NCBI GenBank assembly: GCA_017686895.1
Contig: GCA_017686895.1_4521.1
Origin: a phage
Reading direction: 5' to 3' (one strand)
DNA: 64,000 bases
The translations under genes were made by a program, and so were the position numbers. Numbering within the stretch: position 1 is the stretch's first letter; every line of letters starts with the position of its first letter. The notes under the pieces were generated by a model. The model was not told where the DNA came from. It was given only the letters and a program-made list of their open reading frames with translations, and searched no databases. Of this stretch, positions 14,401 through 28,934 are shown in pieces.

Positions 14401-15036
14401 ATGAAAACTACACCAATCACTATCGCTATTGACGCAATCGTAAAACAAGCTTCTTCTTTGGCTACTATGGCCAAAGTAATTAGTCAAAACCCTGCTCGTT
14501 ATAATGCTATTCTAGAAACTCTTCGACGCCCTGGACTGAGTAATTATGAAAGCCGAGTAATTATTACAGGTGTTGGTAAGAACGCTAATATCGCAACTAA
14601 AGCTTCCGAGACTTTTGCTTCACTAGGTATTCCTAGCATGTATTTGAACACCGGGCATTATTCTCATGGCGACGCAGGGTTTATTGCACCTAATGATGTA
14701 TTAGTTCACATCAGTCGTTCTGGTAAGACTGAAGAAATGATAGGTGTTGCTAAACATCTTCGTATGATTCGTCCTCAGGTTAAACAGATTCTGTTACATT
14801 GTAACCCTGACATTCCGCAAGAATACGAAGCTCTTTTTGATTATACGTTCTGTACAGGCATCGCGGTAGAGGTTGATGAGAATTCTCTGGCTCCGACCAT
14901 GTCCACTACATTGTTGTTAGCGCTTATCGATACGTTTGCTATCAACCTTTCGTCTGAACGTGGATTTACCTCTAATGACTTCCTTAAGTTCCACCCTGGT
15001 GGTGCACTAGGTGCCATGTTACGAGGCGAACAATGA
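14401..15036 (+). CDS. SIS-domain sugar-phosphate isomerase, arabinose-5-phosphate isomerase (KdsD/GutQ)-like
   Basis: Motifs ETFASLGIP, HGDAGF, ISRSGKT resemble KdsD SIS domain; no CBS domains. Confidence 0.7.
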   Translation: MKTTPITIAIDAIVKQASSLATMAKVISQNPARYNAILETLRRPGLSNYESRVIITGVGKNANIATKASETFASLGIPSMYLNTGHYSHGDAGFIAPNDVLVHISRSGKTEEMIGVAKHLRMIRPQVKQILLHCNPDIPQEYEALFDYTFCTGIAVEVDENSLAPTMSTTLLLALIDTFAINLSSERGFTSNDFLKFHPGGALGAMLRGEQ

Positions 15037-15176
15037 AAGCAATAACAATAGGACTTTTACTATTGATGCTTGTCATGACTATCTACTGGAGCTTAACGGC
15101 TCCAGTAATGATTCCGACTCTTATAATCGGATGGATTATGATTGGACTACAAACAAAGTATGAATGCTTTAACTAG
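15033..15176 (+). CDS. small hydrophobic membrane peptide
   Basis: 47-aa ORF hand-translated (MKAITIGLLLLMLVMTIYW...); ATGA overlap with upstream stop; below track cut-off. Confidence 0.25.
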   Translation: MKAITIGLLLLMLVMTIYWSLTAPVMIPTLIIGWIMIGLQTKYECFN

Positions 15177-15217
15177 AATAGTGTACAATACACCTACTTA
15201 CCAATGAGGACCACAAC

Positions 15218-16903
15218 ATGAAAAAAGCTGTTATTCTTGGTGCTGGACTGGCAACTCGTTTGTATCCAATAACGCACCATATTCCTAAGGTGCTTGTTAA
15301 CTATAAACAAGACACTATTCTGAGCAATTTGTATACAATTTATTCTGACCTTGGTGCAGATGAAATTATTGTAGTAGTTCATTCAAAATTTGTTGAAACT
15401 GTTCGAGCTTATTGTGAGCAAGAAGGGTTCAATGTGACTATTCGTACAGTTGATGAAGCGTATGGTTCTGCTTATGCTCTTGCTAAATTATACAAAGATT
15501 TAGATGGCCATAACGTAATTGTTAACTGGTGTGATATTATTCCTGATTTTGGTTCATGGTCTTGGAATGTTAACGCAATCTATGTTAAGGGTGATGAATG
15601 TCGATATAATTTCGATGGTGAAAATATCACTAACGTAGGTTCAACAGGCGGTAATGTTGTAGGAATTTATCAGTTCAAAGACTGGGAATTCTATATGGGT
15701 TCTACTGATGAGGAAATTCATGAATACTGCAAAGGGCGTGATTTCGTAGAATTCCTTTACGGCAGTGCATTCAATAAATCAGAGCTTATGAATCTAATTG
15801 ATTTAGGTGATATGCCTAAACTTGAAAAAGCTCATGAAGTTCGTGAACTTAATCGTAGTTTTAATGCAGTTGAAATTGGTGAAGAAACTGTAACTAAATT
15901 CGCATTAACCGAACAGGGACGAGCTCTTCAGAAAGATGAGATTTCGTGGTATCTTAAAGTGAAATCAGATTCAGTTCCTCAGTTAGTTTCTGTTAATGAA
16001 AATAACTTTGAAATGGAACGCATTAAAGGTAAGCCAGCATTTGAATATATTAAATCCAAATCAAGTCTTGCTCGTCCACAAATTGTTGATGCAATTTTAG
16101 ATGCACTGAAATTCAGCACAGACACTTATTTTGTAAGTCCTGAAACTGTTCGTCGTGATTTCACTAAAGAATTCTATACGAAAGTTATTGATCGTTGTGA
16201 AAGCATTCAACCATTGATTGATTCATTTGGTAAAATCACACATGTGAACTACACTAAGATTGGACGTCTGAAGCCAATGCTGAAACAAGCTTTAGAACAC
16301 CTTATTCGTTATCATAACCGTTCTCAGGGACAGTACTCTGTTATTCATGGTGACCCGAACTTCAGTAATACTATGATTACTGATAACGGCGAAGTCAAGT
16401 TTATCGACCCTCGTGGATATTTTGGCGAAACCAAGATTTACGGGCCAAAATTGTACGATGAAGCTAAAGTGCTTTATGCTGTTTCAGGTTATGATGAATT
16501 CAATGCTAATCCGACCTGGGGACAGTTTACTATTGATGAAACAACTTGTAATGTGACTATTAACATCAATCCATTAATTTACAAATATGGAAAGATGAGT
16601 TCGTTTAACGAGTATCATCATTTGGCGGTGGCAATTATCTGGATTGCATTAGGTGGTTATTTCAAGAATAATCCACTTAAAGCGGTAGCCGCATATTATA
16701 AAGGTATGGAACTTCTGACTAAGCAATTACGCAACATGGGCCGTGTACTTCAAGACGGCTCTATTAGTTATGACGTAGCAGAACCTGTAACGGCTACTCT
16801 GATTACAAAAAATCCTGGTAAATGGGTACTAACTGATAAAGAAACTGGTGTTTCCTATCGTCCAATCGGTGGCGATATCACTCATCAATGGGAACGAATC
16901 TAA
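15218..16903 (+). CDS. bifunctional sugar-1-phosphate nucleotidyltransferase / anomeric sugar kinase-like protein
   Basis: N-term AVILGAGLATRL...PK nucleotidyltransferase signature; C-term HGDPNFSN...IDPRG resembles APH/choline-kinase catalytic loop. Confidence 0.65.
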   Translation: MKKAVILGAGLATRLYPITHHIPKVLVNYKQDTILSNLYTIYSDLGADEIIVVVHSKFVETVRAYCEQEGFNVTIRTVDEAYGSAYALAKLYKDLDGHNVIVNWCDIIPDFGSWSWNVNAIYVKGDECRYNFDGENITNVGSTGGNVVGIYQFKDWEFYMGSTDEEIHEYCKGRDFVEFLYGSAFNKSELMNLIDLGDMPKLEKAHEVRELNRSFNAVEIGEETVTKFALTEQGRALQKDEISWYLKVKSDSVPQLVSVNENNFEMERIKGKPAFEYIKSKSSLARPQIVDAILDALKFSTDTYFVSPETVRRDFTKEFYTKVIDRCESIQPLIDSFGKITHVNYTKIGRLKPMLKQALEHLIRYHNRSQGQYSVIHGDPNFSNTMITDNGEVKFIDPRGYFGETKIYGPKLYDEAKVLYAVSGYDEFNANPTWGQFTIDETTCNVTININPLIYKYGKMSSFNEYHHLAVAIIWIALGGYFKNNPLKAVAAYYKGMELLTKQLRNMGRVLQDGSISYDVAEPVTATLITKNPGKWVLTDKETGVSYRPIGGDITHQWERI

Positions 16904-17289
16904 TGCACCGTGTAGAAAACATGCTTAATCTTTGTTTTGATGTCGATGATTGTATAACAGAGTGGAATAACAATCGTGATTACGTGAACTTCAAACCAGA
17001 CGTCGAAATGGTGTCTGCCATTAATGCCCTGTATGATGCAGGGCATACCATAACGCTTTACACTGCTCGTGGTATGAAGTCAGTAGGTCCTGGTCGTATA
17101 GCAATTGACATTCTCCCAAGTCTGATTCAGAACTTGGCAAACATTGGCTTGAAGTACCATAATTTGCTAACACATAAACCAGTATATGATTGGATTATCG
17201 ACGACAAAGCTATGCGTCCTGACGAATTCAAAGCTCTTATGAATAAAGGCGAATTCGAAACATTTAAATCATATAAACCGAATCTATAA
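16903..17289 (+). CDS. HAD-superfamily phosphatase-like protein
   Basis: FDVDDCIT (DxD motif I), LYTARG, WIIDDK; start taken at ATG overlapping upstream stop. Confidence 0.45.
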   Translation: MHRVENMLNLCFDVDDCITEWNNNRDYVNFKPDVEMVSAINALYDAGHTITLYTARGMKSVGPGRIAIDILPSLIQNLANIGLKYHNLLTHKPVYDWIIDDKAMRPDEFKALMNKGEFETFKSYKPNL

Positions 17290-17335
17290 TAATTTAAGTA
17301 AGACCTGCAAAAACCATCGCATCAATTAACGCGAG

Positions 17336-18505
17336 ATGCAAAAAATGAATACTTTTAAAATCGGAACGAATTTTGATTTAGCTCTTCTTGATAAAATCGT
17401 AGAGCTCAATAAAACCTATCCTAATAGCTTGATAAACGAAGTATATGGCTCTACAAGAGAAATGGCTTTTGTAGCAGCCAGACCTGATTTTAGGCTTCCT
17501 GACGTTGACAAAAAGATGTTAGAAGATTACGTTAAACGTTGTAACGAATTAGGTATTTGCTTTAACTATACACTCAACACGATAAATCCTGGTTCAAAAA
17601 GAGAACTAGTTGAGTGGAAGAAGAAAGCTATTCAGGATTATGTTCAGTATCTTTGGTCAATAGGCGTATGGCGTATTACTATCGCTAACCCTGTTGTTAT
17701 GGAAATTGTTCGTGAAGTCAATAAAGATATTGAGATTGAAGTTTCAACAATTCTACATGTCGATGCGGTAACTCAAATCAAATACTTACATGACCAATAT
17801 AACATCAAAAAGGTCTGTTGCGGAATTCATAAGAACCGTTCAGTTTCTTTCCTGAAGCGTGCAGCAGAGTTTTGCAATAAGAACAATATAATATTTGAAG
17901 TTCTTGTAAATGAGTTCTGTTCTAATGCTGGTAAAGGGTATACAACACATTGTAGTTATCGTGACTCTTGCTATATTTTCCATAGTACTGATGTTACAGC
18001 TGATGATGCTAAATCCTTAAATGGATATCCAATGCAACACTGCATTAAAGCTCGTGATACAGACCCATTTAACTGGTTGAGAACTCGTTTTGTTCGTCCT
18101 CAAGATTTGAAACTTTATAATGATATTGGTATCACTCAATTCAAAGTTTCAGGACGTACAGGTAGCACAGACTACATTTTGAAAGTTCTTGAAGCATACG
18201 CTTCTGAAAAGTTTGAAGGTAATTTGTTAGAACTGTGGAAGCCTTTAGAGACTATTTTCACTCTTGAAAATGAGACTGAGTTTTCACATACAGTAAATAT
18301 TGAAACCTCTTTGTTAGATGGCTTTTTAGAAAAAAGGTGGTTCAGACATCCAGATTTTGATTGTGCTAATGAAATCTGTGGGTCAACGTGTACATATTGT
18401 GAAAGGTATTATAAACGTCAATTATCTAAAAACGGGTTAGCAGAAAACTCCATATCTATTATTGATATAACTAACTCTGATGACGCTTTGAGGTACCCGG
18501 AATGA
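17336..18505 (+). CDS. peptidase-U32-family-like Fe-S protein
   Basis: N-terminal layout and Cys-rich EFCSNAGKGYTTHCSYRDSC segment resemble U32 family; C-terminal CxxxCxxC cluster. Confidence 0.5.
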   Translation: MQKMNTFKIGTNFDLALLDKIVELNKTYPNSLINEVYGSTREMAFVAARPDFRLPDVDKKMLEDYVKRCNELGICFNYTLNTINPGSKRELVEWKKKAIQDYVQYLWSIGVWRITIANPVVMEIVREVNKDIEIEVSTILHVDAVTQIKYLHDQYNIKKVCCGIHKNRSVSFLKRAAEFCNKNNIIFEVLVNEFCSNAGKGYTTHCSYRDSCYIFHSTDVTADDAKSLNGYPMQHCIKARDTDPFNWLRTRFVRPQDLKLYNDIGITQFKVSGRTGSTDYILKVLEAYASEKFEGNLLELWKPLETIFTLENETEFSHTVNIETSLLDGFLEKRWFRHPDFDCANEICGSTCTYCERYYKRQLSKNGLAENSISIIDITNSDDALRYPE

Positions 18506-18741
18506 TTTCTAGAAAAAGTTTTAATTATAAACTTAACGAAGAGATTTTGACTATGAAACTGAACACTAACGAACAAATTCTTAAAAAGGCCCTTATGGGC
18601 CTGTTTGAAACCAAAGCGGCTAAAGTGATTAAAGAACCTGTTCAATTGGAATACTACACTGATGCATTCCTTCATAGTGTTCTTGGAAGTATAGATTCTG
18701 AAGCTTTACGTTATATCAACATTGTCAAGAAATTCAAATAA
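18502..18741 (+). CDS. hypothetical protein
   Basis: 79-aa ORF, ATGA overlap. Confidence 0.3.
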   Translation: MISRKSFNYKLNEEILTMKLNTNEQILKKALMGLFETKAAKVIKEPVQLEYYTDAFLHSVLGSIDSEALRYINIVKKFK

Positions 18742-18764
18742 GCTTTATGAATTGAGTATATAAT
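18741..18764 (+). promoter_or_regulatory. middle-promoter-like element upstream of 42-like gene
   Basis: aGCTTTA box, 11-nt spacer, TATAAT. Confidence 0.35.
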
Positions 18765-18783
18765 AAATTGTATTGAGGTAAAT

Positions 18784-19500
18784 ATGGGAAAACATAACAC
18801 AATGAAATATATCAAAGCCGCAGATTTTCAAACCGCATTTAAAGCAGTCAATCGTGAAATTTTAGAAAACCCCGAATTCGTAACTGATTCTCGTATTGGA
18901 CGTTGTAATGAAATTGGGTCTATGACAGTAGTTGTTGACACTCCATCATCATTCAAAATGACCGACCCACGTATTAACCGCATCTCTTATGAATATGCCG
19001 AAGACTTCTGGAAGTTTATGATTTCTGGTGGTACCAACGCAGAAGAAGCGTTTAAGGCATATCCTAATGTCGCTAAATTTATTTCTAAACCAAAATCAGA
19101 TGTTTTGCCGGCGAACTTCAACACTTTCTATGGTCCTCGCATTGCGGCCCAATTACCAACTCTTCTAAAAGAACTTAAAGAAAAACCTAACTCTCGAAGA
19201 GTTGTGTTCCAAATTCTAGAAAGTTCTGATCAGGCTTTGCTTGATTCGGACGAAACACTTGAATATCCATGTACTGACTCAGTAACTTATTATATTCGTG
19301 ATGGTAAGCTTTATACCCACTGTCATATGCGTTCTCAGAACTGTGCTGTTGTTATGCAGTTGGATTTTTATCTCCAAGGAAAATTACTTCATTATATCGC
19401 TAACGAATGCGGTGTAGAAGTTGGTGATTATACTCATACCATGGTAAGTGCCCATGTGTTTGAACGTGATTTTGATTATGTTAAAGGATTCCTTGACTAA
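18784..19500 (+). CDS. thymidylate-synthase-family pyrimidine hydroxymethylase (gene 42-like dCMP hydroxymethylase)
   Basis: PCTDSV and HCHMRSQN resemble TS-family catalytic Cys and (Q/M)RS motifs; position and dCTPase at 29023 support hmC synthesis; divergent from T4 gp42. Confidence 0.65.
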   Translation: MGKHNTMKYIKAADFQTAFKAVNREILENPEFVTDSRIGRCNEIGSMTVVVDTPSSFKMTDPRINRISYEYAEDFWKFMISGGTNAEEAFKAYPNVAKFISKPKSDVLPANFNTFYGPRIAAQLPTLLKELKEKPNSRRVVFQILESSDQALLDSDETLEYPCTDSVTYYIRDGKLYTHCHMRSQNCAVVMQLDFYLQGKLLHYIANECGVEVGDYTHTMVSAHVFERDFDYVKGFLD

Positions 19501-20399
19501 TGGCTATTTTCCGCGTACCAATCTTGAGTATGCGGTCTTATGAAACTGGACAGTATGCTATCCTTAAGGATGGCAACTTCCAACTTCATTTGCACCGTGC
19601 TAATCCAGGTGATGTGATTACATATCCACGTAATGCATCTGATATTAAAGAATGCGAACGTCTTTTCCCAGAATTTAAGTTTGTTCCATTATGGTATAAA
19701 GATAACGCGTATAACACTCGTAAATATTTCTGGTCTGAAAATGAATTTGTGGTTGATTCATTAATTGCTTATTATGATTGTGATTTTCTAATCACAGATA
19801 TCACCGGATATGACGGCGCTTTTGATGTGGAATTCAATTTCAATATCACTGCAGACCCTAATAAACCACGTTTTTATATTGACGAATTCTTAAAAACTGA
19901 TATGTTGTCGGTTAATCGTTCACTTCAAACTACTGTGTTGAATGAACGTCAAAAAGAAGTGCTGGTTAACGCAGGTGCAGATGGTAATAAGATTATCGTA
20001 ACGCAGAAAGTTATACGTCCTTCCATCATGCAGCGTCTTGTAGGTGATTTGGCTCCTATTCATCTAGATGGTATTTTTCATCCATTTCGAATTAGTGACC
20101 CGTGCTATCGTTTTGAACAAGTGGTTGAATGTGCAATTCAATTAGGCCAACCGCTTTATATAACCGATCCAAATAATAGCTTCGACAGAAATAAGTATCC
20201 TGAAGAAGCATTGATTCGAATTTTTAAACCAACTAAAACTGAGTACTATCAAATTCTTAAAGGACGTCCGAAGATTCAATATTTCGAAAATCCTGAAGAA
20301 GTATTCCATCCAGGTCTTGGTGAGTTCATCTACTTTAATGCTTTAATTTCTTCGCCGTATAATATACCTAAATATGAAGATGTCGTAATCGAGGAATAA
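19500..20399 (+). CDS. hypothetical protein at the T4 beta-gt position
   Basis: 299-aa ORF between 42-like and uvsX; no recognisable motif. Confidence 0.45.
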   Translation: MAIFRVPILSMRSYETGQYAILKDGNFQLHLHRANPGDVITYPRNASDIKECERLFPEFKFVPLWYKDNAYNTRKYFWSENEFVVDSLIAYYDCDFLITDITGYDGAFDVEFNFNITADPNKPRFYIDEFLKTDMLSVNRSLQTTVLNERQKEVLVNAGADGNKIIVTQKVIRPSIMQRLVGDLAPIHLDGIFHPFRISDPCYRFEQVVECAIQLGQPLYITDPNNSFDRNKYPEEALIRIFKPTKTEYYQILKGRPKIQYFENPEEVFHPGLGEFIYFNALISSPYNIPKYEDVVIEE

Positions 20400-20400
20400 A

Positions 20401-20949
20401 ATGGCTAAAATTATTTTAGTAGATGGCCCGGATAATGCTGGTAAAACAACTTTCATTAATGACATAATGGAAATTAGTGAAAGATATGTAAAGATTGATT
20501 TCCCTAAACGAACAGTTGATGGACGTTTCGATGTTAAGTCTCGAAATGAAGTTGGCTGTTTCGAAACTATGTTGAATTATTTAGACCCTACTAAGATTTA
20601 TCTATTAGACCGTGGATATATTAGTAACTGGGTTTATGGACGTATTCGACAAGATGCGGACTCGGTTCTTGACGTTTATGAACAGGATTATGTTCGTCTT
20701 TGCCAAAACCATGATGTGTTCACAATTATTTTAACACGTAACGAAATGACTGAAAGTTTTGAAGACGACCTTATTACTTTGTCTTCATTCGGTTTTAATA
20801 CAGTAATTTCACATTTTGAAGAGTTTGCAATTCATAACGAAATCCAAACGTATCAATTACTTAATCATGATGGTGCTAACAAAGTTATAGGATTTAATGC
20901 AAGCGAACGTAATAATTTGATTACAGAAATCATCAAATGGGCTCGTTAA
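20401..20949 (+). CDS. P-loop nucleoside/nucleotide kinase-like protein
   Basis: Walker A GPDNAGKTT and LDRGY motif resemble thymidylate/dNMP kinase fold. Confidence 0.5.
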   Translation: MAKIILVDGPDNAGKTTFINDIMEISERYVKIDFPKRTVDGRFDVKSRNEVGCFETMLNYLDPTKIYLLDRGYISNWVYGRIRQDADSVLDVYEQDYVRLCQNHDVFTIILTRNEMTESFEDDLITLSSFGFNTVISHFEEFAIHNEIQTYQLLNHDGANKVIGFNASERNNLITEIIKWAR

Positions 20950-22563: not shown

Positions 22564-24006
22564 GTGGTAGAAATTATTTTGTCTCATCTAGTATACGACC
22601 AGGCTTATTTTTCTAAGGTCTGGCCTTATATGGATTCTGACTATTTTGAGCGTGGACCGGCAAAAAATGTCTTTAAAATTATAAAGAGCCACGTTAACGA
22701 ATATAATGCAATGCCATCTATCAATGCGTTAAAGGTGGCTTTAGATAACAGTTCTTTAACTGAAGCCGAATATAAAGGAACTTCAGACCTAATTGAAAAA
22801 TTGGCTGATACTCCTGAAGACCATGAATGGTTGGTTAAAGAAACTGAGAAATATATCCAGCAAAAAGCGATGTATAATGCTACATCCAAAATCATTGAGA
22901 TTCAGTCTAATGCTGAACTACCTCCGGAACAACGTAACAAGAAAATGCCTGACGTAGGAGCTATTCCTGATATTATGCGTCAAGCACTTTCAATTTCGTT
23001 CGATAGTTATGTTGGGCATGACTGGATGGAAGACTATGAAGCACGTTGGCTTTCTTATCTAAATAAAGCACGTAAGGTCCCGTTCAAATTAAACATTTTG
23101 AATAAAATCACCAAAGGCGGCGCAGAAACAGGTACACTAAACGTTTTAATGGCTGGTGTTAACGTCGGTAAATCTTTAGGCCTTTGTTCACTTGCTGCAG
23201 ATTATCTTCAAACAGGTCATAATGTTCTTTATATTTCCATGGAAATGGCTGAAGAAGTTTGTGCTAAGCGTATAGATGCAAACATGCTTGACGTATCACT
23301 CGATGATATCGATGATGGTAACATATCTTATGCTGAATATAAAGCCAAGATGGAAAAATGGCGTTCAAAAACAACATTAGGACGTTTAGTAGTTAAACAG
23401 TATCCTACTGGCGGAGCTAATGCTAATACATTCCGTGCATTGCTTAATGAGTTAAAACTTAAGAAGAACTTTGTGCCATCTGTAATCATGGTTGATTACT
23501 TAGGTATTTGTGGGTCTTGTCGTATCAGAGTTTACACTGAAAATAGCTACACATTAGTTAAAGCTATCGCAGAAGAACTTCGTGCATTAGCAGTAGAATC
23601 TGAAACAGTTCTATGGACTGCAGCTCAAGTAGGACGTGCAGCATGGGATGCTTCAGACATGAACATGAGTGATATCGCAGAATCAGCAGGTTTACCAGCA
23701 ACGGCAGATTTCATGTTGGCTGTAATTGAAACCGAAGAACTTGCACAAGCTGAACAACAACTTATCAAACAAATCAAATCACGATACGGCGATAAGAATA
23801 AGTGGAATAAATTCCTGATGGGTGTACGTAAAGGCAATCAGAAATGGGTTGAGATTGAGCAAGAAGGCATGAACACACCTAACACAGTAAATGAAAACGC
23901 AGGTGCTCAGATGCGTCAGGCAGAGGTGAATCGTACGGAACGCGTAGGTAAAGCCAAAGCAACACGTGCTGACCTAGATAGCTTAGCCAATGAGTTAAAA
24001 TTTTAA
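22564..24006 (+). CDS. 41: replicative DNA helicase gp41 (DnaB-like)
   Basis: GTG start with AAGGAG SD; MVEIILSHLVYDQAYFSKVWPYMDS matches T4 gp41; Walker A GVNVGKS. Confidence 0.93.
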   Translation: MVEIILSHLVYDQAYFSKVWPYMDSDYFERGPAKNVFKIIKSHVNEYNAMPSINALKVALDNSSLTEAEYKGTSDLIEKLADTPEDHEWLVKETEKYIQQKAMYNATSKIIEIQSNAELPPEQRNKKMPDVGAIPDIMRQALSISFDSYVGHDWMEDYEARWLSYLNKARKVPFKLNILNKITKGGAETGTLNVLMAGVNVGKSLGLCSLAADYLQTGHNVLYISMEMAEEVCAKRIDANMLDVSLDDIDDGNISYAEYKAKMEKWRSKTTLGRLVVKQYPTGGANANTFRALLNELKLKKNFVPSVIMVDYLGICGSCRIRVYTENSYTLVKAIAEELRALAVESETVLWTAAQVGRAAWDASDMNMSDIAESAGLPATADFMLAVIETEELAQAEQQLIKQIKSRYGDKNKWNKFLMGVRKGNQKWVEIEQEGMNTPNTVNENAGAQMRQAEVNRTERVGKAKATRADLDSLANELKF

Positions 24007-24012
24007 TAAAAA

Positions 24013-24028
24013 GGAGACTTCGGTCTCC
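24013..24028 (+). terminator. hairpin (UUCG loop) after gene 41
   Basis: ggagac-ttcg-gtctcc then ttt. Confidence 0.4.
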
Positions 24029-24035
24029 TTTCGGG

Positions 24036-24065
24036 GTTTACATCTTCCTCTAGGCATGATATGAT
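24036..24065 (+). promoter_or_regulatory. early-promoter-like element
   Basis: GTTTAC -35, 18-nt spacer, TATGAT -10. Confidence 0.45.
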
Positions 24066-24094
24066 GTACTTACACAAACCAAGAGGAAAACATT

Positions 24095-24469
24095 ATGAAT
24101 ATGTCTCAAGCAATTTTTACTGCAATCACCGAAAACACAACTGTTGAAGTAGTTTCTCCGCTGGCAACCTACGTTATTCTTGCTCCTAAAACTATTGTAT
24201 CTCGTATGGAAAACACAGGCAAACGTATCGTACAAATAGTTGGAGCTGGAAATCAAAAACTTGATTATCTACGAACCATCAAAGCTTACGAACATTTCCA
24301 ACTCGAAAAAGGTTCTCCTATCCAGGTAGAACTCGTAAATGGTGATATCGTTCGAGCAATGTTCCATCATTTCTATGCATTGAATGACCCATCTAAAGCG
24401 GTTCGTTTAATTGCATATGACGCAAACCAAAACGAAATCAACGCAGATATATCTAAATTACATTTTTAA
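24095..24469 (+). CDS. hypothetical protein
   Basis: 124-aa ORF downstream of early-promoter-like element. Confidence 0.4.
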   Translation: MNMSQAIFTAITENTTVEVVSPLATYVILAPKTIVSRMENTGKRIVQIVGAGNQKLDYLRTIKAYEHFQLEKGSPIQVELVNGDIVRAMFHHFYALNDPSKAVRLIAYDANQNEINADISKLHF

Positions 24470-24518
24470 GTTTACTTCTCCAGTAGTTGTGTTATTATAG
24501 ACCTATCAACTACTGGAG
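24470..24518 (+). promoter_or_regulatory. early-promoter/stem-loop cassette (PeSL-like)
   Basis: GTTTAC -35, TATTAT -10, 12-bp arms ctccagtagttg / caactactggag flanking -10; right arm carries the SD. Confidence 0.5.
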
Positions 24519-24524
24519 AACAAA

Positions 24525-24842
24525 ATGAAAACCATCGATTGTAAAGCAGAATTTAAGATTTTTTATCACGGTTCAAGTAGTTCAGCTAACATCGAAAACA
24601 TGCTTTGTCCTCCTGAAGAAACAGGAGTTCTGTCTGAAACTGGACGTAAGAAAAACTTGGATCGTGTATTCTTTACTGAAGATATCGGTTTAGCAAAGAT
24701 TTATGCAGGACGAGCAGCACGCTCTTATGGAGGTGAACCACGTCTCTATCGAGTAATTTCTCCGGTAGATGTAGTTCAAATGAATGATACTAAAGGCGCT
24801 ACAGTTTATCACGCTGAATGGGCATTTTGCGAGGAAATATGA
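24525..24842 (+). CDS. hypothetical protein
   Basis: 105-aa ORF downstream of promoter/stem-loop cassette. Confidence 0.4.
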   Translation: MKTIDCKAEFKIFYHGSSSSANIENMLCPPEETGVLSETGRKKNLDRVFFTEDIGLAKIYAGRAARSYGGEPRLYRVISPVDVVQMNDTKGATVYHAEWAFCEEI

Positions 24843-25030
24843 GCAAATTAACTAAAGTTACTTTTATCGGTTGGTTTAAAAGCGGTGAGATGTTCACTAA
24901 AGATATCATGTTATCAGGTGATCGCGAAGAAATCGAGTGGGTTACGGTACAACTTGCTGAAGTGAACAATGCATTAGTTAAAGCATTTATTAATGACGAG
25001 AAAGTTTTTGAAGCTGATTTCAGAGGATAA
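24839..25030 (+). CDS. small protein, possible Dmd-like antitoxin (tentative)
   Basis: 63 aa; near gene 41 as dmd is in T4; identity rests on uncertain recall. Confidence 0.4.
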   Translation: MSKLTKVTFIGWFKSGEMFTKDIMLSGDREEIEWVTVQLAEVNNALVKAFINDEKVFEADFRG

Positions 25031-25031
25031 T

Positions 25032-25244
25032 ATGTATTCAACTGTGTTTAAACCATCAACATACGAATTTGCATCAACTACACAATGGAAAGCTCTTATT
25101 CTGGAAGGATGGGAACTAATGATGGACTGCGAAGCATCTGAAAAGTTTCCACACGGCAAAGTGGACTTCGTTAAATTTGCTGTACGTCCGACTAAACGAC
25201 AGATTCGTCAAGAAAAACGCAAATTTCGAAAAAGTTTAAAATAG
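25032..25244 (+). CDS. hypothetical basic protein
   Basis: 70-aa ORF with basic C-terminus. Confidence 0.35.
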   Translation: MYSTVFKPSTYEFASTTQWKALILEGWELMMDCEASEKFPHGKVDFVKFAVRPTKRQIRQEKRKFRKSLK

Positions 25245-25246
25245 CT

Positions 25247-25276
25247 GTTTACAAGCACCACATACTGTGTTACTAT
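25247..25276 (+). promoter_or_regulatory. early-promoter-like element
   Basis: GTTTAC -35, TACTAT -10 upstream of lipoprotein gene. Confidence 0.45.
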
Positions 25277-25304
25277 CTTTCTATCAACTACAGAGGAAAT
25301 TGAA

Positions 25305-25673
25305 ATGAAAAAATTAATCGCTTTAGCAATGGTATTTGGATTAACCGGATGTGGTGCCCATGGCTTTATCCCTAATAACGTCGGCCAATTGATTTACAAT
25401 CCGAATGTTAAACAGTACGACCAACCTAAAGTTGAAGTGGAAGACCCGGTTACTGTAGGTAATCGAATGATTCAAGCTGATGCCCATGCTCAACGTTATC
25501 GTGACTCTGATACCGTAGCATTGTCAAAAGAACAACGCGTTAAAGAACATTGTCTACAGGCTACTGAAATCGCATTCATTCGCTATGTTGAAACAACTGG
25601 TAAAGAGCCTACCCAGAAACAAATCGCGAATAACTACGTCCAGTGTATTGAACGTTTAAACAAATTTAATTAA
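25305..25673 (+). CDS. putative lipoprotein
   Basis: Signal peptide plus lipobox MKKLIALAMVFGLTGC. Confidence 0.5.
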   Translation: MKKLIALAMVFGLTGCGAHGFIPNNVGQLIYNPNVKQYDQPKVEVEDPVTVGNRMIQADAHAQRYRDSDTVALSKEQRVKEHCLQATEIAFIRYVETTGKEPTQKQIANNYVQCIERLNKFN

Positions 25674-25676
25674 TTG

Positions 25677-25706
25677 GTTTACACCAAAGTTAAAATAAGA
25701 TACTAT
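25677..25706 (+). promoter_or_regulatory. early-promoter-like element
   Basis: GTTTAC -35, TACTAT -10 upstream of imm-like gene. Confidence 0.45.
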
Positions 25707-25734
25707 AAACATAACAAATCAAGAGGAAATTAAC

Positions 25735-25983
25735 ATGGAATTATTCGTAGCTAGTTCAGTAGCAGTTTTAATCGCAGGTATTGGTTCAATCATCATTTAC
25801 ATGTTGCCTTGGGTAATCGCACTTATTCGTGGCACAAAAAGCACAACAGCAATCTTCTTTGTATCTTTACTCTTTAACTGGACGATGGTTGGTTGGATTG
25901 GAACTTTAATTTGGTCTATCGTTGCCGAAAAGAAATCTGCTCAGCAGCCTCAACAAGTAATTATTATTCGCGAAAAAGAATAA
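25735..25983 (+). CDS. imm: superinfection immunity protein Imm-like membrane protein
   Basis: 82 aa, two predicted TM helices; LPWVIALIRG...LLFNWTMVGWIGTLIWS resembles Imm family. Confidence 0.6.
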   Translation: MELFVASSVAVLIAGIGSIIIYMLPWVIALIRGTKSTTAIFFVSLLFNWTMVGWIGTLIWSIVAEKKSAQQPQQVIIIREKE

Positions 25984-25987
25984 ACTT

Positions 25988-26026
25988 GTTTACATTATAG
26001 ATGGACTATAGTATAGTAGTCCTATC
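25988..26026 (+). promoter_or_regulatory. early-promoter-like element
   Basis: GTTTAC -35, TATAGT -10, conserved agtcctatc start region. Confidence 0.45.
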
Positions 26027-26046
26027 AAATTAACTAAGGAGTTAAA

Positions 26047-26340
26047 ATGAAAAAGTTATCATTGGCAGCAATCTTACTTGCAGTATCATGTGCACCGGCT
26101 CCAGTTACGGCAGGTTATGATAAAGACCTCTGTGAGTGGTCAATGACTGCAAATCAAGAAGATGTTGAACAACAAATCTTCTCTGATATCATGAACATCA
26201 CTAAACGAGACCGTCCTAATATGGTTAATAAAGTTGTTGAACAACTTAAGTCTGGCGGTATCATGCAGTACAATTATGTTTTGTATTGTGACCCTAATTT
26301 CGATAACAAAGATATCGTAACCGAAATCACAGGTGAATAA
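26047..26340 (+). CDS. sp: periplasmic Spackle-like protein
   Basis: 97 aa with signal peptide; AGYDKDLCEWSMTA...QYNYVLYCD resembles T4 Sp as recalled; adjacent to gene 61. Confidence 0.5.
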   Translation: MKKLSLAAILLAVSCAPAPVTAGYDKDLCEWSMTANQEDVEQQIFSDIMNITKRDRPNMVNKVVEQLKSGGIMQYNYVLYCDPNFDNKDIVTEITGE

Positions 26341-26341
26341 T

Positions 26342-26992
26342 ATGATTTATTACATGCACAAAAACGCACCATTTAAATATGGTAAATTTCCTAATGCACA
26401 ATGTTATAATATAACGCCGAACGAAAATAATAACGGATATCATATTGGTGTAATTTTTGTAATTGTTAAAGATAACGAAATCGTTGCCTGGGCCGATTTT
26501 AAAGGTACAACATATGATGTTAATCCTGTGCCTTTCACATATTACAATATAATGGATTTGGCATATGATTATAATTGGTTTAATCATGACGCGTTGGCTC
26601 ATATTGAAGGTGTAGGATTTGACATCTCTTATTCTAGCTATTCATTATGTCCTATGAGCAGGGCTCATGGTAAAGATGCATCATATCTTTCATTTCGGAA
26701 ACGTGTAAACTTCAAACGTAGTACAGAGTATGTTGGCGGACTCTTTGTTAAAGATAATAAAATAACCCGTATTAGTTATCCTTTAAGTGTAGGTCAAAAA
26801 GATGTTGATGTTGATTTAGACTTAACTGAAAATAACATTAATCGTATTGCTTCTGTATATTTTGATATCGATGAAAAAATTGTAGTGTGTGGATACGAAT
26901 TACCACCTGAAGAAAAGGCTGAAGCAGTTGAAGTCGAATTAGAAATTTCTGTTGATGACCAAATATTTAATGCATTTATGAATCGAGGTTAA
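26342..26992 (+). CDS. hypothetical protein
   Basis: 217-aa AT-rich ORF. Confidence 0.4.
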   Translation: MIYYMHKNAPFKYGKFPNAQCYNITPNENNNGYHIGVIFVIVKDNEIVAWADFKGTTYDVNPVPFTYYNIMDLAYDYNWFNHDALAHIEGVGFDISYSSYSLCPMSRAHGKDASYLSFRKRVNFKRSTEYVGGLFVKDNKITRISYPLSVGQKDVDVDLDLTENNINRIASVYFDIDEKIVVCGYELPPEEKAEAVEVELEISVDDQIFNAFMNRG

Positions 26993-26993
26993 A

Positions 26994-27191
26994 ATGACTA
27001 CTGCAATTTGCACTGGTTCTAAAATTAGTGTTTTTACAAGTTTTGAAGATTATGAAGTTGTTTCAAAACACCAACGCCATATTAGCGTAAAAGCTAATGA
27101 CGGTGTAATTTGGAATATTCCACAGTATGAAGGCACTACATATGAAGTCACAGATATAAATGGTGACAAAGCAATCTTTGTAATTGATTAA
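26994..27191 (+). CDS. hypothetical protein
   Basis: 65-aa ORF. Confidence 0.3.
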   Translation: MTTAICTGSKISVFTSFEDYEVVSKHQRHISVKANDGVIWNIPQYEGTTYEVTDINGDKAIFVID

Positions 27192-27210
27192 ATATACTCA
27201 GGAGGTACCT

Positions 27211-27678
27211 ATGGGTATTATTAACACTGCAATAGATTCTGTTTACGCATATAAGTTTATTCGACTAATGCAAAAACCTTTTACTGAATGGAAAGCGTAT
27301 GAAGCCAAAATCATCGATGAACGTGGGAGTGTTCTTAAACGCCCTTCCACTCCTGAAGAGAAAGCGGCTTATACACCTTTTCATGCTTCAGTTCGTTCAA
27401 TGAAGCGAATGATGAGCACTGTTCCAGGTCTTAATGGAATGGCCTCAATGATGTCTGCCTGGAGTGCTGTAGCTTCACGCTATAACATTACGGAAGAACA
27501 ACAGAAAGAAATATTTAAAGAACTCCCTTTATTTGAGGATATGGTTGCTGGTGATTCAGGTGGCAGCCCTCAAGCTATTGCATCAGGAACAACTACAGGT
27601 GCAGTAGTAAATAAAGGTCCAGAACAAATTCCTTCCAAGAAAAGAAAGCGAATTAAAGTAAATATTAATAAGTTGTGA
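27211..27678 (+). CDS. hypothetical protein
   Basis: ATG after GGAGGT SD; basic KKRKRIKV C-terminus. Confidence 0.4.
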   Translation: MGIINTAIDSVYAYKFIRLMQKPFTEWKAYEAKIIDERGSVLKRPSTPEEKAAYTPFHASVRSMKRMMSTVPGLNGMASMMSAWSAVASRYNITEEQQKEIFKELPLFEDMVAGDSGGSPQAIASGTTTGAVVNKGPEQIPSKKRKRIKVNINKL

Positions 27679-27717
27679 TATGATGGCCTTATTAATTTAA
27701 GGCCTCTGGAGAATACT

Positions 27718-28740
27718 ATGGCTGAATGGATAGATAATGAATTTGCTTATCGTGCGTTTTCTCACCTACCTCGTTTTAGACAAATCAATAATTCAAGCAC
27801 ATTTAAATTAACATTTCGATGTCCAGTTTGTGGCGACTCCCAGACAGATGCAATGAAAGCTCGCGGATGGTATTATGGTGGAACTCCAGGTAATGTGCAT
27901 TGCTATAACTGTCAATATCATAATACAATTTCCGGATACTTAAAAGAGTATGATGAAGAGCTTTATCGCGAATATCTAATGGAAGTTCGTAAAGAAAAAG
28001 CTAGAATGGAACCAAAGATTGAAAAGGTTCCTGAAGCTAAGCCGGAACCAGAGAAAAAGACTATAAATTCTTTGCCGTCTTGTTCTCGTCTGGACAAGCT
28101 GCCCGAAGAGCATCCTATTGTGAAATATGTTAAGTCTCGGTGTATTCCTAAAGAATCATGGAACAGATTATGGTTCACATTAGAATGGCCTAAATTGGTC
28201 AACAAGATTCAACCTGGTACGTATAAGAAAGAGATTCCCGAACCACGTTTAGTGATTCCTATTTTTAATAAAGATGGGAAGGCCGAGTCATTCCAAGGAC
28301 GTGCACTTCGTAAAGATGCTCCTCAGAAATATATCACTATTAAAGCGTTTGAGTCTGCAACAAAAATTTATGGTGTTGAACGTGTTAAGGAAGGGGACGT
28401 CTGGGTAATGGAAGGCCCTATTGATAGTTTATTCATACCCAATGCAATCGCTATTACAGGCGGCTCGATAGATTTAGATGTGGTACCATTTAAAGAACGT
28501 CGGGTATGGGTAATGGATAATGAACCTAGGCATCCGGATACTATAGCTCGTATGAAGCGATTAGTTGATGCAGGCGAACGTGTCATGTTCTGGGACCGAG
28601 CTCCATGGAGATCAAAGGATGTGAATGATATGGTAATGAAAGAAAATGCAACACCACAAGAAATTTTAGAATATATGAAACAGAATATTTCAAGTGGGTT
28701 GCATGCTAAAATGAGATTATCTCGTTATTCGAAGATTTAA
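27718..28740 (+). CDS. 61: DNA primase gp61
   Basis: WIDNEFAYRAFSHLPRF and zinc motif FRCPVCGDSQTD match T4 gp61 as recalled. Confidence 0.9.
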   Translation: MAEWIDNEFAYRAFSHLPRFRQINNSSTFKLTFRCPVCGDSQTDAMKARGWYYGGTPGNVHCYNCQYHNTISGYLKEYDEELYREYLMEVRKEKARMEPKIEKVPEAKPEPEKKTINSLPSCSRLDKLPEEHPIVKYVKSRCIPKESWNRLWFTLEWPKLVNKIQPGTYKKEIPEPRLVIPIFNKDGKAESFQGRALRKDAPQKYITIKAFESATKIYGVERVKEGDVWVMEGPIDSLFIPNAIAITGGSIDLDVVPFKERRVWVMDNEPRHPDTIARMKRLVDAGERVMFWDRAPWRSKDVNDMVMKENATPQEILEYMKQNISSGLHAKMRLSRYSKI

Positions 28741-28934
28741 ACAAGCCCTATAATAGCAAAGGCCAAATCAACTACAGTATCCAATGGAACAGAAGGAACT
28801 ATAATACCATGGGCAACTAACAATGGTGCAATCCCGAAGTTCCATGAAATAATGCCACCTACAACTATTGCAGCGATGGCAGTTTTCTTTTTATTGCCTT
28901 TAATAGCGTTGATTAACGACGGAAGTTTAAACAT
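28737..28934 (-). CDS. small hydrophobic membrane protein
   Basis: 65 aa, two hydrophobic segments; GGAG SD 5 nt upstream on - strand; only - strand gene in this + strand block. Confidence 0.4.
   Translation of the reverse strand: MFKLPSLINAIKGNKKKTAIAAIVVGGIISWNFGIAPLLVAHGIIVPSVPLDTVVDLAFAIIGLV

Follow-up and report, generated by a model that had tools for sequence, protein, structure and literature searches.

The subject of this analysis is the interval between gene 41 and gene 61 in a 64,000-nucleotide (nt) stretch of phage DNA (GenBank assembly GCA_017686895.1, contig GCA_017686895.1_4521.1), referred to over its full length as the window, and in particular the block at positions 24010–27700. 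Ten tightly packed open reading frames (ORFs) on the + strand occupy 24095–27678 of this block; each gene is present in a single copy in the window, and the ten match one to one the ten annotated coding sequences of phage JS09 (Table 1). An earlier note on this DNA had described ten small ORFs here, several of them preceded by early-promoter-like elements, and both the ten genes and the promoter-like elements (five intergenic motifs) were found. The block is very probably the Mosigvirus (RB69-type) version of the early 41–61 region, the content of which varies among T-even phages. One of its genes, ORF040c, encodes a protein for which structural modelling predicts an Arr/Tpt1-like ADP-ribosyltransferase (ART) fold.

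The 3691-nt block sequence was matched in 354 phage records, at least 80% of the stretch being covered in 155 of them, and the best-ranked records match it over its full length at 98–99% identity. The matching records are RB69-type Mosigvirus genomes (mar005P1, JS09, APCEc01, HX01, ST0 and others), many with annotations for sp, imm and dmd. All ten genes recur, identically ordered, in RB69 (RB69p031–p041, from 61.1 to ORF041c; NC_004928), as well as in JS09, APCEc01, HX01 and about 150 other Mosigvirus genomes. The RB69 proteins are 98–100% identical to those of the window: Dmd, TifA and Imm are identical, and there are a few amino-acid substitutions in AdfA, ORF041c, ORF033c, Sp, Imm.1 and ORF040c. 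Dmd, TifA, Imm.1, Imm, Sp and AdfA match Pfam models above the gathering score, and a PHROG family was assigned to all ten genes; no match was obtained for ORF041c, ORF040c, ORF033c and 61.1 in Pfam, NCBIfam and PADLOC searches, and PADLOC gave none for any of the ten genes. The T4 proteins map back to the same ORFs at 32–69% identity and to no other place in the window. Gene starts were adjusted to the conserved ones, giving 63, 70, 216 and 155 amino acids (aa) for dmd, 61.4, adfA and 61.1, respectively; the longest frames from the ORF finder are too long (70, 83, 219 and 164 aa).

Table 1. Genes and other features of the 41–61 interval and of the former imm site, in window positions.
Feature	Position	Strand	Remarks
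Gene 41, replicative helicase	22564–24006	+	Left flank, outside the block; 480-aa ORF; gp41 in JS09 and RB69 at matching position
Terminator-like hairpin	24010–24031	+	UUCG loop then UUU; 9-bp stem, −12.8 kcal/mol, z −2.6; directly after gene 41
Promoter-like P1	24036–24065	+	GTTTACA-N17-TATGAT; upstream of ORF041c
ORF041c homologue, 124 aa	24095–24469	+	98% identical to RB69ORF041c; phrog_10668
Promoter-like P2 within stem-loop	24470–24526	+	GTTTACT-N16-TATTAT; composite resembling a promoter-early stem-loop (PeSL); upstream of ORF040c
ORF040c homologue, 105 aa	24525–24842	+	Predicted Arr/Tpt1-like mini ADP-ribosyltransferase fold
dmd, 63 aa	24839–25030	+	PF17587; phrog_2102; 100% identical to RB69 Dmd
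tifA (61.4), 70 aa	25032–25244	+	PF23945/DUF7279; 100% identical to RB69 TifA
Promoter-like P3	25247–25276	+	GTTTACA-N17-TACTAT; upstream of imm.1
imm.1, 122-aa predicted lipoprotein	25305–25673	+	PF17578/DUF5481; lipobox
Promoter-like P4	25677–25706	+	GTTTACA-N17-TACTAT; upstream of imm
imm, 82-aa membrane protein	25735–25983	+	PF14373; phrog_1039
Promoter-like P5	25988–26017	+	GTTTACA-N17-TATAGT; upstream of sp
sp (spackle, 61.3), 97 aa	26047–26340	+	PF25676
adfA (61.2), 216 aa	26342–26992	+	PF23813; 98% identical to RB69 AdfA
ORF033c homologue, 65 aa	26994–27191	+	98% identical to RB69ORF033c; phrog_3249
61.1, long form, 155 aa	27211–27678	+	phrog_2086 and phrog_1823
Hairpin in 61.1–61 spacer	27682–27706	+	−12 kcal/mol, z −2.9; just upstream of the gene 61 ribosome-binding site
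Gene 61, primase	27718–28740	+	Right flank, outside the block; 340-aa ORF; gp61 in JS09 and RB69
Remnant of T4-type imm–42 intercistronic region	15054–15166	+	Without imm gene; downstream of gene 43

In T4 the interval reads 41-dmd-61.4-sp-61.2-61.1-61 and is driven by early promoters; its dmd, tifA, sp, adfA and the C-terminus of its 61.1 are orthologous to genes of the window, in which the order and orientation of these five genes are kept. In comparison with T4, the window contains in addition ORF041c and ORF040c after gene 41, imm.1-imm between tifA and sp, and ORF033c. If the block were a recently acquired foreign island instead of an ancestral T-even region, ORF041c, ORF040c and ORF033c would be expected to lack T4 orthologues, as they do, and the density of promoters and hairpins is of a kind that has been proposed for module shuffling (PMC4122927). 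However, the GC content (0.31–0.41) and strand skews resemble those of the flanks, the T4 order of dmd, tifA, sp, adfA and 61.1 is preserved, the same arrangement is present in all of the approximately 155 Mosigvirus records and, between genera, only individual cassettes differ. Recent foreign origin is thus highly improbable and was rejected on account of the flank-like composition and the retained synteny. ARAGORN found no tRNA in the block, and Rfam gave only a sub-threshold chance match to a hairpin (mir-2010, 27 bits against a cut-off of 66).

Other genera illustrate how the ancestral region varies. In Gaprivervirus SP18, two unknown ORFs follow 41 and precede an ORF040c homologue, dmd and sp; then come four unknown ORFs (one a homologue of ORF033c), a short 61.1 and 61. 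Compared with the window, this gene content thus describes the 41–61 interval as a conserved frame around which cassettes come and go.

Only the imm.1-imm pair has moved, and its relocation is real. The earlier note had listed imm, sp and dmd as relocated and had placed T4 imm between 42 and 43. In T4 the pair imm.1-imm lies between genes 43 and 42; relocation of sp and dmd was rejected, as both keep the T4 order and are true orthologues, not merely similar genes. The imm gene follows the polymerase gene 43 in T4 (behind imm.1), in Gaprivervirus UPEC07 and in Dhakavirus dhabil, and in Salmonella phage S16 it adjoins the deoxycytidine monophosphate (dCMP) hydroxymethylase gene (T4 gene 42). Mosigvirus thus has the derived position. 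Furthermore, the footprint of the ancestral imm site is preserved in the window as a segment with 71% identity to the T4 imm–42 spacer over 115 nt (E = 3e-9), and RB69ORF054c is annotated as 'similar to T4 42-imm intercistronic region'. A second copy of imm at the T4 site was considered and rejected, only this 115-nt spacer remnant being there. Whereas imm and sp are about 6 kb apart in T4, imm.1, imm and sp are adjacent in the window, with a promoter motif for each.

A strong hairpin is located within the imm–42 remnant at 15084–15107 (−16 kcal/mol, z −4.4), and its stem (CTACTGGAGC) has the motif CTACTGGAG in common with the promoter-embedded hairpin at 24476–24520. Between gene 43 and uvsX (14401–20949), sugar-metabolism-type genes take the place of the imm.1, imm, 42 and beta-gt of T4; the RB69 annotation of this region lists arabinose-5-phosphate isomerase-like, nucleotidyl transferase-like, peptidase U32-like and phosphoheptose isomerase-like proteins. 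A 561-aa ORF at 15218–16903 covers roughly two ORFs of the RB69 annotation (052c and 053c).

A scan of both strands of the window for the early-promoter motif GTTTACW-N16-18-TAnnnT yielded 18 sites on the + strand and two on the − strand. Five of the 18 fall in the 3.7-kb block, all of them intergenic and 25–60 nt upstream of a start codon, and these five agree with the T-even PeSL promoter consensus TTTACW-N17-TAYWAT (PMC4122927). The PeSL elements of T4-type phages (PMC2839356, PMC4122927) pair an early promoter with a strong stem-loop, and the same pairing is seen at P2, where the stem-loop at 24476–24520 has a 14-bp stem (−21.1 kcal/mol, z −5.3) that none of 200 shuffled sequences equalled. 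Like a PeSL, the composite is sited in a genus-variable region and adjoins genes that are absent from T4; it differs in its spacer (16 nt against N17 in the consensus), and among the five promoters of the block it is the only one with a strong stem, the other four having a weak stem or none. A 33-nt direct repeat with 76% identity (24488–24520 and 25266–25298) was also observed, in which the −10 element of P2 and the part downstream of it recur in P3. One copy lies on each side of the ORF040c-dmd-tifA unit. In evolved T4, dmd-tifA was amplified through short flanking homologies (PMC9391042), and the ORF040c-dmd-tifA unit may therefore be likewise prone to amplification.

Apart from the hairpins at the two ends of the block (Table 1), a generic terminator scan inside it returned two sites, none convincing, against 2.3 expected by chance; several near-identical genomes annotate a terminator somewhere within the matched stretch. 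Beyond the block, a 65-aa hydrophobic ORF on the − strand (28737–28934) shares 4 nt with the end of gene 61; it is the counterpart of RB69ORF029w, among the few − strand genes of the early region.

Dmd matches its family model with 77.2 bits against a cut-off of 27 (E = 1e-21; residues 4–63 on model positions 3–60 of 60) and is 58% identical to T4 Dmd (T4 identities of this kind refer to local alignments); judged by its sequence, it is expected to be an antitoxin-like inhibitor of RnlA/LsoA. The dmd start overlaps the ORF040c stop in an ATGA, by which the two genes are joined and translationally coupled, and tifA begins after a 1-nt gap from the dmd stop. TifA (71.7 bits against a cut-off of 24.5, E = 5e-20) is 57% identical to T4 TifA, lacks the C-terminal extension of the latter and is basic, with 15 Lys and Arg residues among 70 and a central basic cluster. 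Gene 61.4 has been renamed tifA, its product being a protein inhibitor of the ribonuclease (RNase) ToxN; of the four homologues compared, RB69 TifA inhibited ToxN with the highest potency (PMC9391042); this tested form is identical to the TifA of the window.

AdfA matches its model over the whole length (positions 1–211 of 211; 401 bits against a cut-off of 27, E = 1e-120) and is 69% identical to T4 AdfA. Gene 61.2 is adfA, for anti-DarT factor A, and in RB69 the protein with Arg164 neither binds nor neutralizes Escherichia coli DarT1, whereas that with His164 does (PMC11257639). The window protein, like that of wild-type RB69, has Arg at this position (residue 168 of 216, R164 in RB69 numbering), in the sequence NNINRIAS in place of NIINHIAS in T4. 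This difference concerns activity against one DarT and not membership of the AdfA family. The His allele arises readily in RB69 under selection.

The three hydrophobic products of the block are Imm.1, Imm and Sp. Imm (56.9 bits against a cut-off of 27.9, E = 2e-15) has two hydrophobic segments, 1–34 and 40–59, and is 65% identical to T4 Imm. Sp (145 bits against a cut-off of 27, E = 1e-42) has a hydrophobic N-terminal signal segment at 4–24 and aligns with T4 Sp without gaps at 66% identity, both disulfide Cys residues (29 and 81 in T4) being kept. In family, size and topology the pair corresponds to Imm and Spackle of T4, which jointly give superinfection exclusion, Sp being an inhibitor of the gp5 tail lysozyme for which a structure of the complex is available (PMC7677548). 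Imm.1 (37.3 bits against a cut-off of 27), a member of the Pfam family of unknown function DUF5481, has a signal with an LTGC lipobox at residues 13–16, is 35% identical to T4 Imm.1 and is encoded directly upstream of imm in both T4 and the window. A homologue search for Imm.1 gave three clusters, a number too small, like the two for ORF041c, to support good structural modelling, and its AlphaFold2 model is poor (predicted local distance difference test, pLDDT, 60).

The earlier note had recognized an Imm-like two-helix membrane protein, a Spackle-like periplasmic protein and a 63-aa protein possibly of the Dmd type, and the family models and direct T4 alignments described above confirm all three. 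Of the two lipobox or signal-peptide proteins that it had counted separately, Imm.1 was found as such, but the only other signal protein is Sp itself; a third secreted protein was rejected, as no further signal or lipobox N-terminus exists among the block products. Its view that most of the ORFs have no assignable function is out of date: TifA and AdfA had been missed, and five of the ten genes have experimentally characterized homologues. Its description of the block as an exclusion and anti-defence region agrees with the literature, in which the dmd-tifA-adfA neighbourhood has been named an anti-toxin–antitoxin (anti-TA) island (eLife 2022; PMC9391042).

Among the less familiar genes, ORF041c is a genus-level orphan and a real gene that is essentially restricted to Mosigvirus; only two clusters were found for it among 5.8 billion proteins, one of them a full-length match at 52% identity, and a PDB sequence search gave matches at chance level only. 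That ORF041c and ORF033c are chance open frames would agree with the lack of a Pfam, NCBIfam, PADLOC or PDB match for either and with the near absence of homologues of ORF041c. This is scarcely credible, however, in view of the full-length homologue of ORF041c, the 66% identical homologue of ORF033c at the same relative position, directly upstream of 61.1, in SP18 and the PHROG families of both; moreover, both frames are tightly spaced, have ribosome-binding sites and occupy parts of the transcribed strand that would be empty without them.

The 61.1 protein is three times longer in the window than in T4, in which it has only 54 aa, and its C-terminal 47 or so residues are 70% identical to the T4 protein. 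The frame is intact at 155 aa in the window and in JS09, and is split into ORF032c and 61.1 in the RB69 reference (L003 3318–3784). Over its full length it is 57% identical to 61.1 of Acinetobacter phage Acj61, which likewise adjoins gene 61 (L008 5302–5781); the long form is therefore taken as ancestral and the T4 protein as a remnant. Since 61.1 is conserved beside the primase gene in so distant a phage, it looks like a partner of that gene and not like an accessory gene.

The following outline of how the block may work takes from the DNA itself what the genes are, how they are ordered, the promoter motifs and the footprint of the relocation, and from published work on T4 and RB69 the biochemical activities; we infer that each promoter is used, as well as any role of Imm.1, 61.1, ORF033c, ORF040c and ORF041c. 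Several sigma-70-type early promoters would probably drive the block directly after infection, and its products would work in three compartments. In the cytoplasm, three small proteins would bind and neutralize toxins of host toxin–antitoxin defences, Dmd acting on the RNases RnlA/LsoA, TifA on the RNase ToxN and AdfA on a DarT DNA ADP-ribosyltransferase. In the inner membrane, Imm would stop the entry of DNA from later-arriving T-even phages, and in the periplasm Sp would inhibit the gp5 tail lysozyme of such phages; the Imm.1 lipoprotein adjoins Imm in gene order here as in T4. The leading cistron of the ORF040c-dmd-tifA unit, ORF040c, most likely encodes one more effector directed at the host, and 61.1 would be an ancient partner of the primase gene, not an accessory. 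Relative to T4, ORF041c and ORF040c would have been inserted after 41 and ORF033c farther along, imm.1-imm would have moved in from after 43, and 61.1 would have stayed at full length.

Several points weigh against this outline. Promoter use is deduced from motif, position and strand bias. Dmd and TifA may differ in target range from their T4 counterparts, because they are 58% and 57% identical to them. The AdfA allele of the window is the one reported to be inactive against E. coli DarT1; since the Arg allele fails against this toxin in RB69, AdfA probably targets another DarT. Furthermore, the position of 61.1 beside the primase gene across subfamilies argues that not all of the block is related to defence.

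The genes of the block and their order, the move of imm in RB69-type phages and the interpretation as an anti-defence region can already be found in GenBank annotations and in papers published between 2003 and 2025. Since the genes, their functions and the anti-TA island have been published, the content and meaning of the block are therefore known, and the block itself adds little. Its practical value is a short list of candidates, the other genes of the anti-TA island having been described as attractive antitoxin candidates (PMC9391042): ORF041c, ORF040c, ORF033c, Imm.1 and the N-terminal part of 61.1. The best candidate among them is ORF040c.

ORF040c has no T4 orthologue, as its name indicates under the naming rule of the RB69 annotators. 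It was found by tblastn in 610 phage records, a few of which call it 'ADP-ribosyl transferase', and strong conservation extends from coliphages to phages of Acinetobacter, Aeromonas and Vibrio: the identity is 65–72% in T4-like phages of Klebsiella, Acinetobacter, Aeromonas and Stenotrophomonas, and 25 of its 105 positions are invariant among 38 homologues. In Mosigvirus and Gaprivervirus it immediately precedes dmd, and in RB16 and 44RR it is sited elsewhere. Within the searchable literature, no paper was found on ORF040c itself, nor on its family as an ADP-ribosyltransferase in RB69, Mosigvirus or T4-like phages; a single text match to 'ORF040c' concerns same-numbered ORFs of two other phages, Aeh1 and RB49.

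The AlphaFold2 model of ORF040c is confident (pLDDT 86; predicted template modelling score, pTM, 0.78) and has the split beta-sheet core of the ART fold, lying near Arr, Tpt1 and the anti-CRISPR protein AcrF11. In a Foldseek comparison with viral models, a phage protein bearing the name 'Rifampin ADP-ribosyl transferase' was retrieved at 37% identity (E = 6e-8). Minimal ART folds of the H-Y-[DE] type are those of Tpt1/KptA and of Arr (rifampin ADP-ribosyltransferase, PF12120). At the sequence level, Pfam gave no match to ORF040c itself at an E value of 0.1 or better, PF12120 included, and in PDB sequence searches ORF040c alone gave no match and the profile of close homologues (A1) gave only a chance match; a broadened profile (A3) matched the Arr-ms structure 2HW2 (E = 0.005), with the His-Gly-Thr and Glu-x-Gly-Arg motifs in register. 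In the alignment with Arr, H15 of ORF040c corresponds to H19, E38-x-G40-R41 to E40-x-G42-R43 and the invariant F49 to Y49. With H15 aligned to Arr H19 and the fold matched, the fold and the His of the site for nicotinamide adenine dinucleotide (NAD) are therefore taken to be present in ORF040c. H15-G16-S/T and E38 are invariant, and G40, R41, K43 and N44 are found in at least 90% of 39 diverse sequences. ORF040c differs from Arr in its length (105 aa compared with 143 aa), in the Phe at the position of Tyr49 and in an additional conserved basic loop (GRKKNLD).

A profile search of 1.84 billion representative proteins gave 222 matches of the ORF040c type, many of them domains at the C-terminus or in the interior of proteins as long as 3924 aa. 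Carriers of giant size include P0144 (3735 aa), P0147 (3924 aa), P0175 (2892 aa) and P0166 (1955 aa), among others. In six of ten large proteins scanned, the ORF040c-type stretch also matches PF12120 (Arr-ms) with 24–29 bits. Its partner domains include ART-PolyVal, NUDIX, a lambda-type portal with 2H/Acb1, GNAT and Toprim. Such a domain make-up is reported for phage polyvalent effector proteins in a passage of PMC9503650 that cites Iyer et al. (2017), and the large multi-domain carriers look like proteins of this kind.

In the Acinetobacter phage Acj61, the ORF040c homologue is located near NAD-salvage genes and near sp-61.1-61. It lies about 1 kb (three small ORFs) downstream of the genes for nicotinamide phosphoribosyltransferase and ribose-phosphate pyrophosphokinase (L008 249–4297), a context that fits an NAD-using enzyme.

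It is possible, and is put forward here tentatively, that ORF040c is an active Arr-like ADP-ribosyltransferase, encoded by the first cistron of the dmd-tifA unit, which modifies a host defence component or nucleic acid and thereby protects the phage. A doubtful alternative is that ORF040c is a catalytically dead decoy or binder with an ART fold, which might, as a mimic, titrate an antitoxin, a sensor or an ART toxin (DarT, for instance). The catalytic Tyr49 of Arr aligns with the invariant Phe of ORF040c, the profile alignment ends before Arr Asp84 and no invariant acidic residue that could be aligned with it is found in that region of ORF040c, the protein is shorter than Arr by the margin given above, and the neighbouring Dmd, TifA and AdfA work through binding without catalysis, all of which would suit a binder. 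However, Phe could still stack on nicotinamide, and an invariant NAD-site His and E38 together with near-invariant G40, R41, K43 and N44 form a pattern typical of an active site; in polyvalent proteins, furthermore, the ORF040c-type domain stands beside enzymatic effector domains (ART-PolyVal, NUDIX, 2H/Acb1 and GNAT).

If ORF040c is indeed an active enzyme, it would represent, as a protein on its own, an effector domain that in other phages is injected as part of polyvalent proteins. It would also be a near-core enzyme of counter-defence or host takeover in the non-T4 Straboviridae, one that was overlooked because T4 lacks ORF040c.

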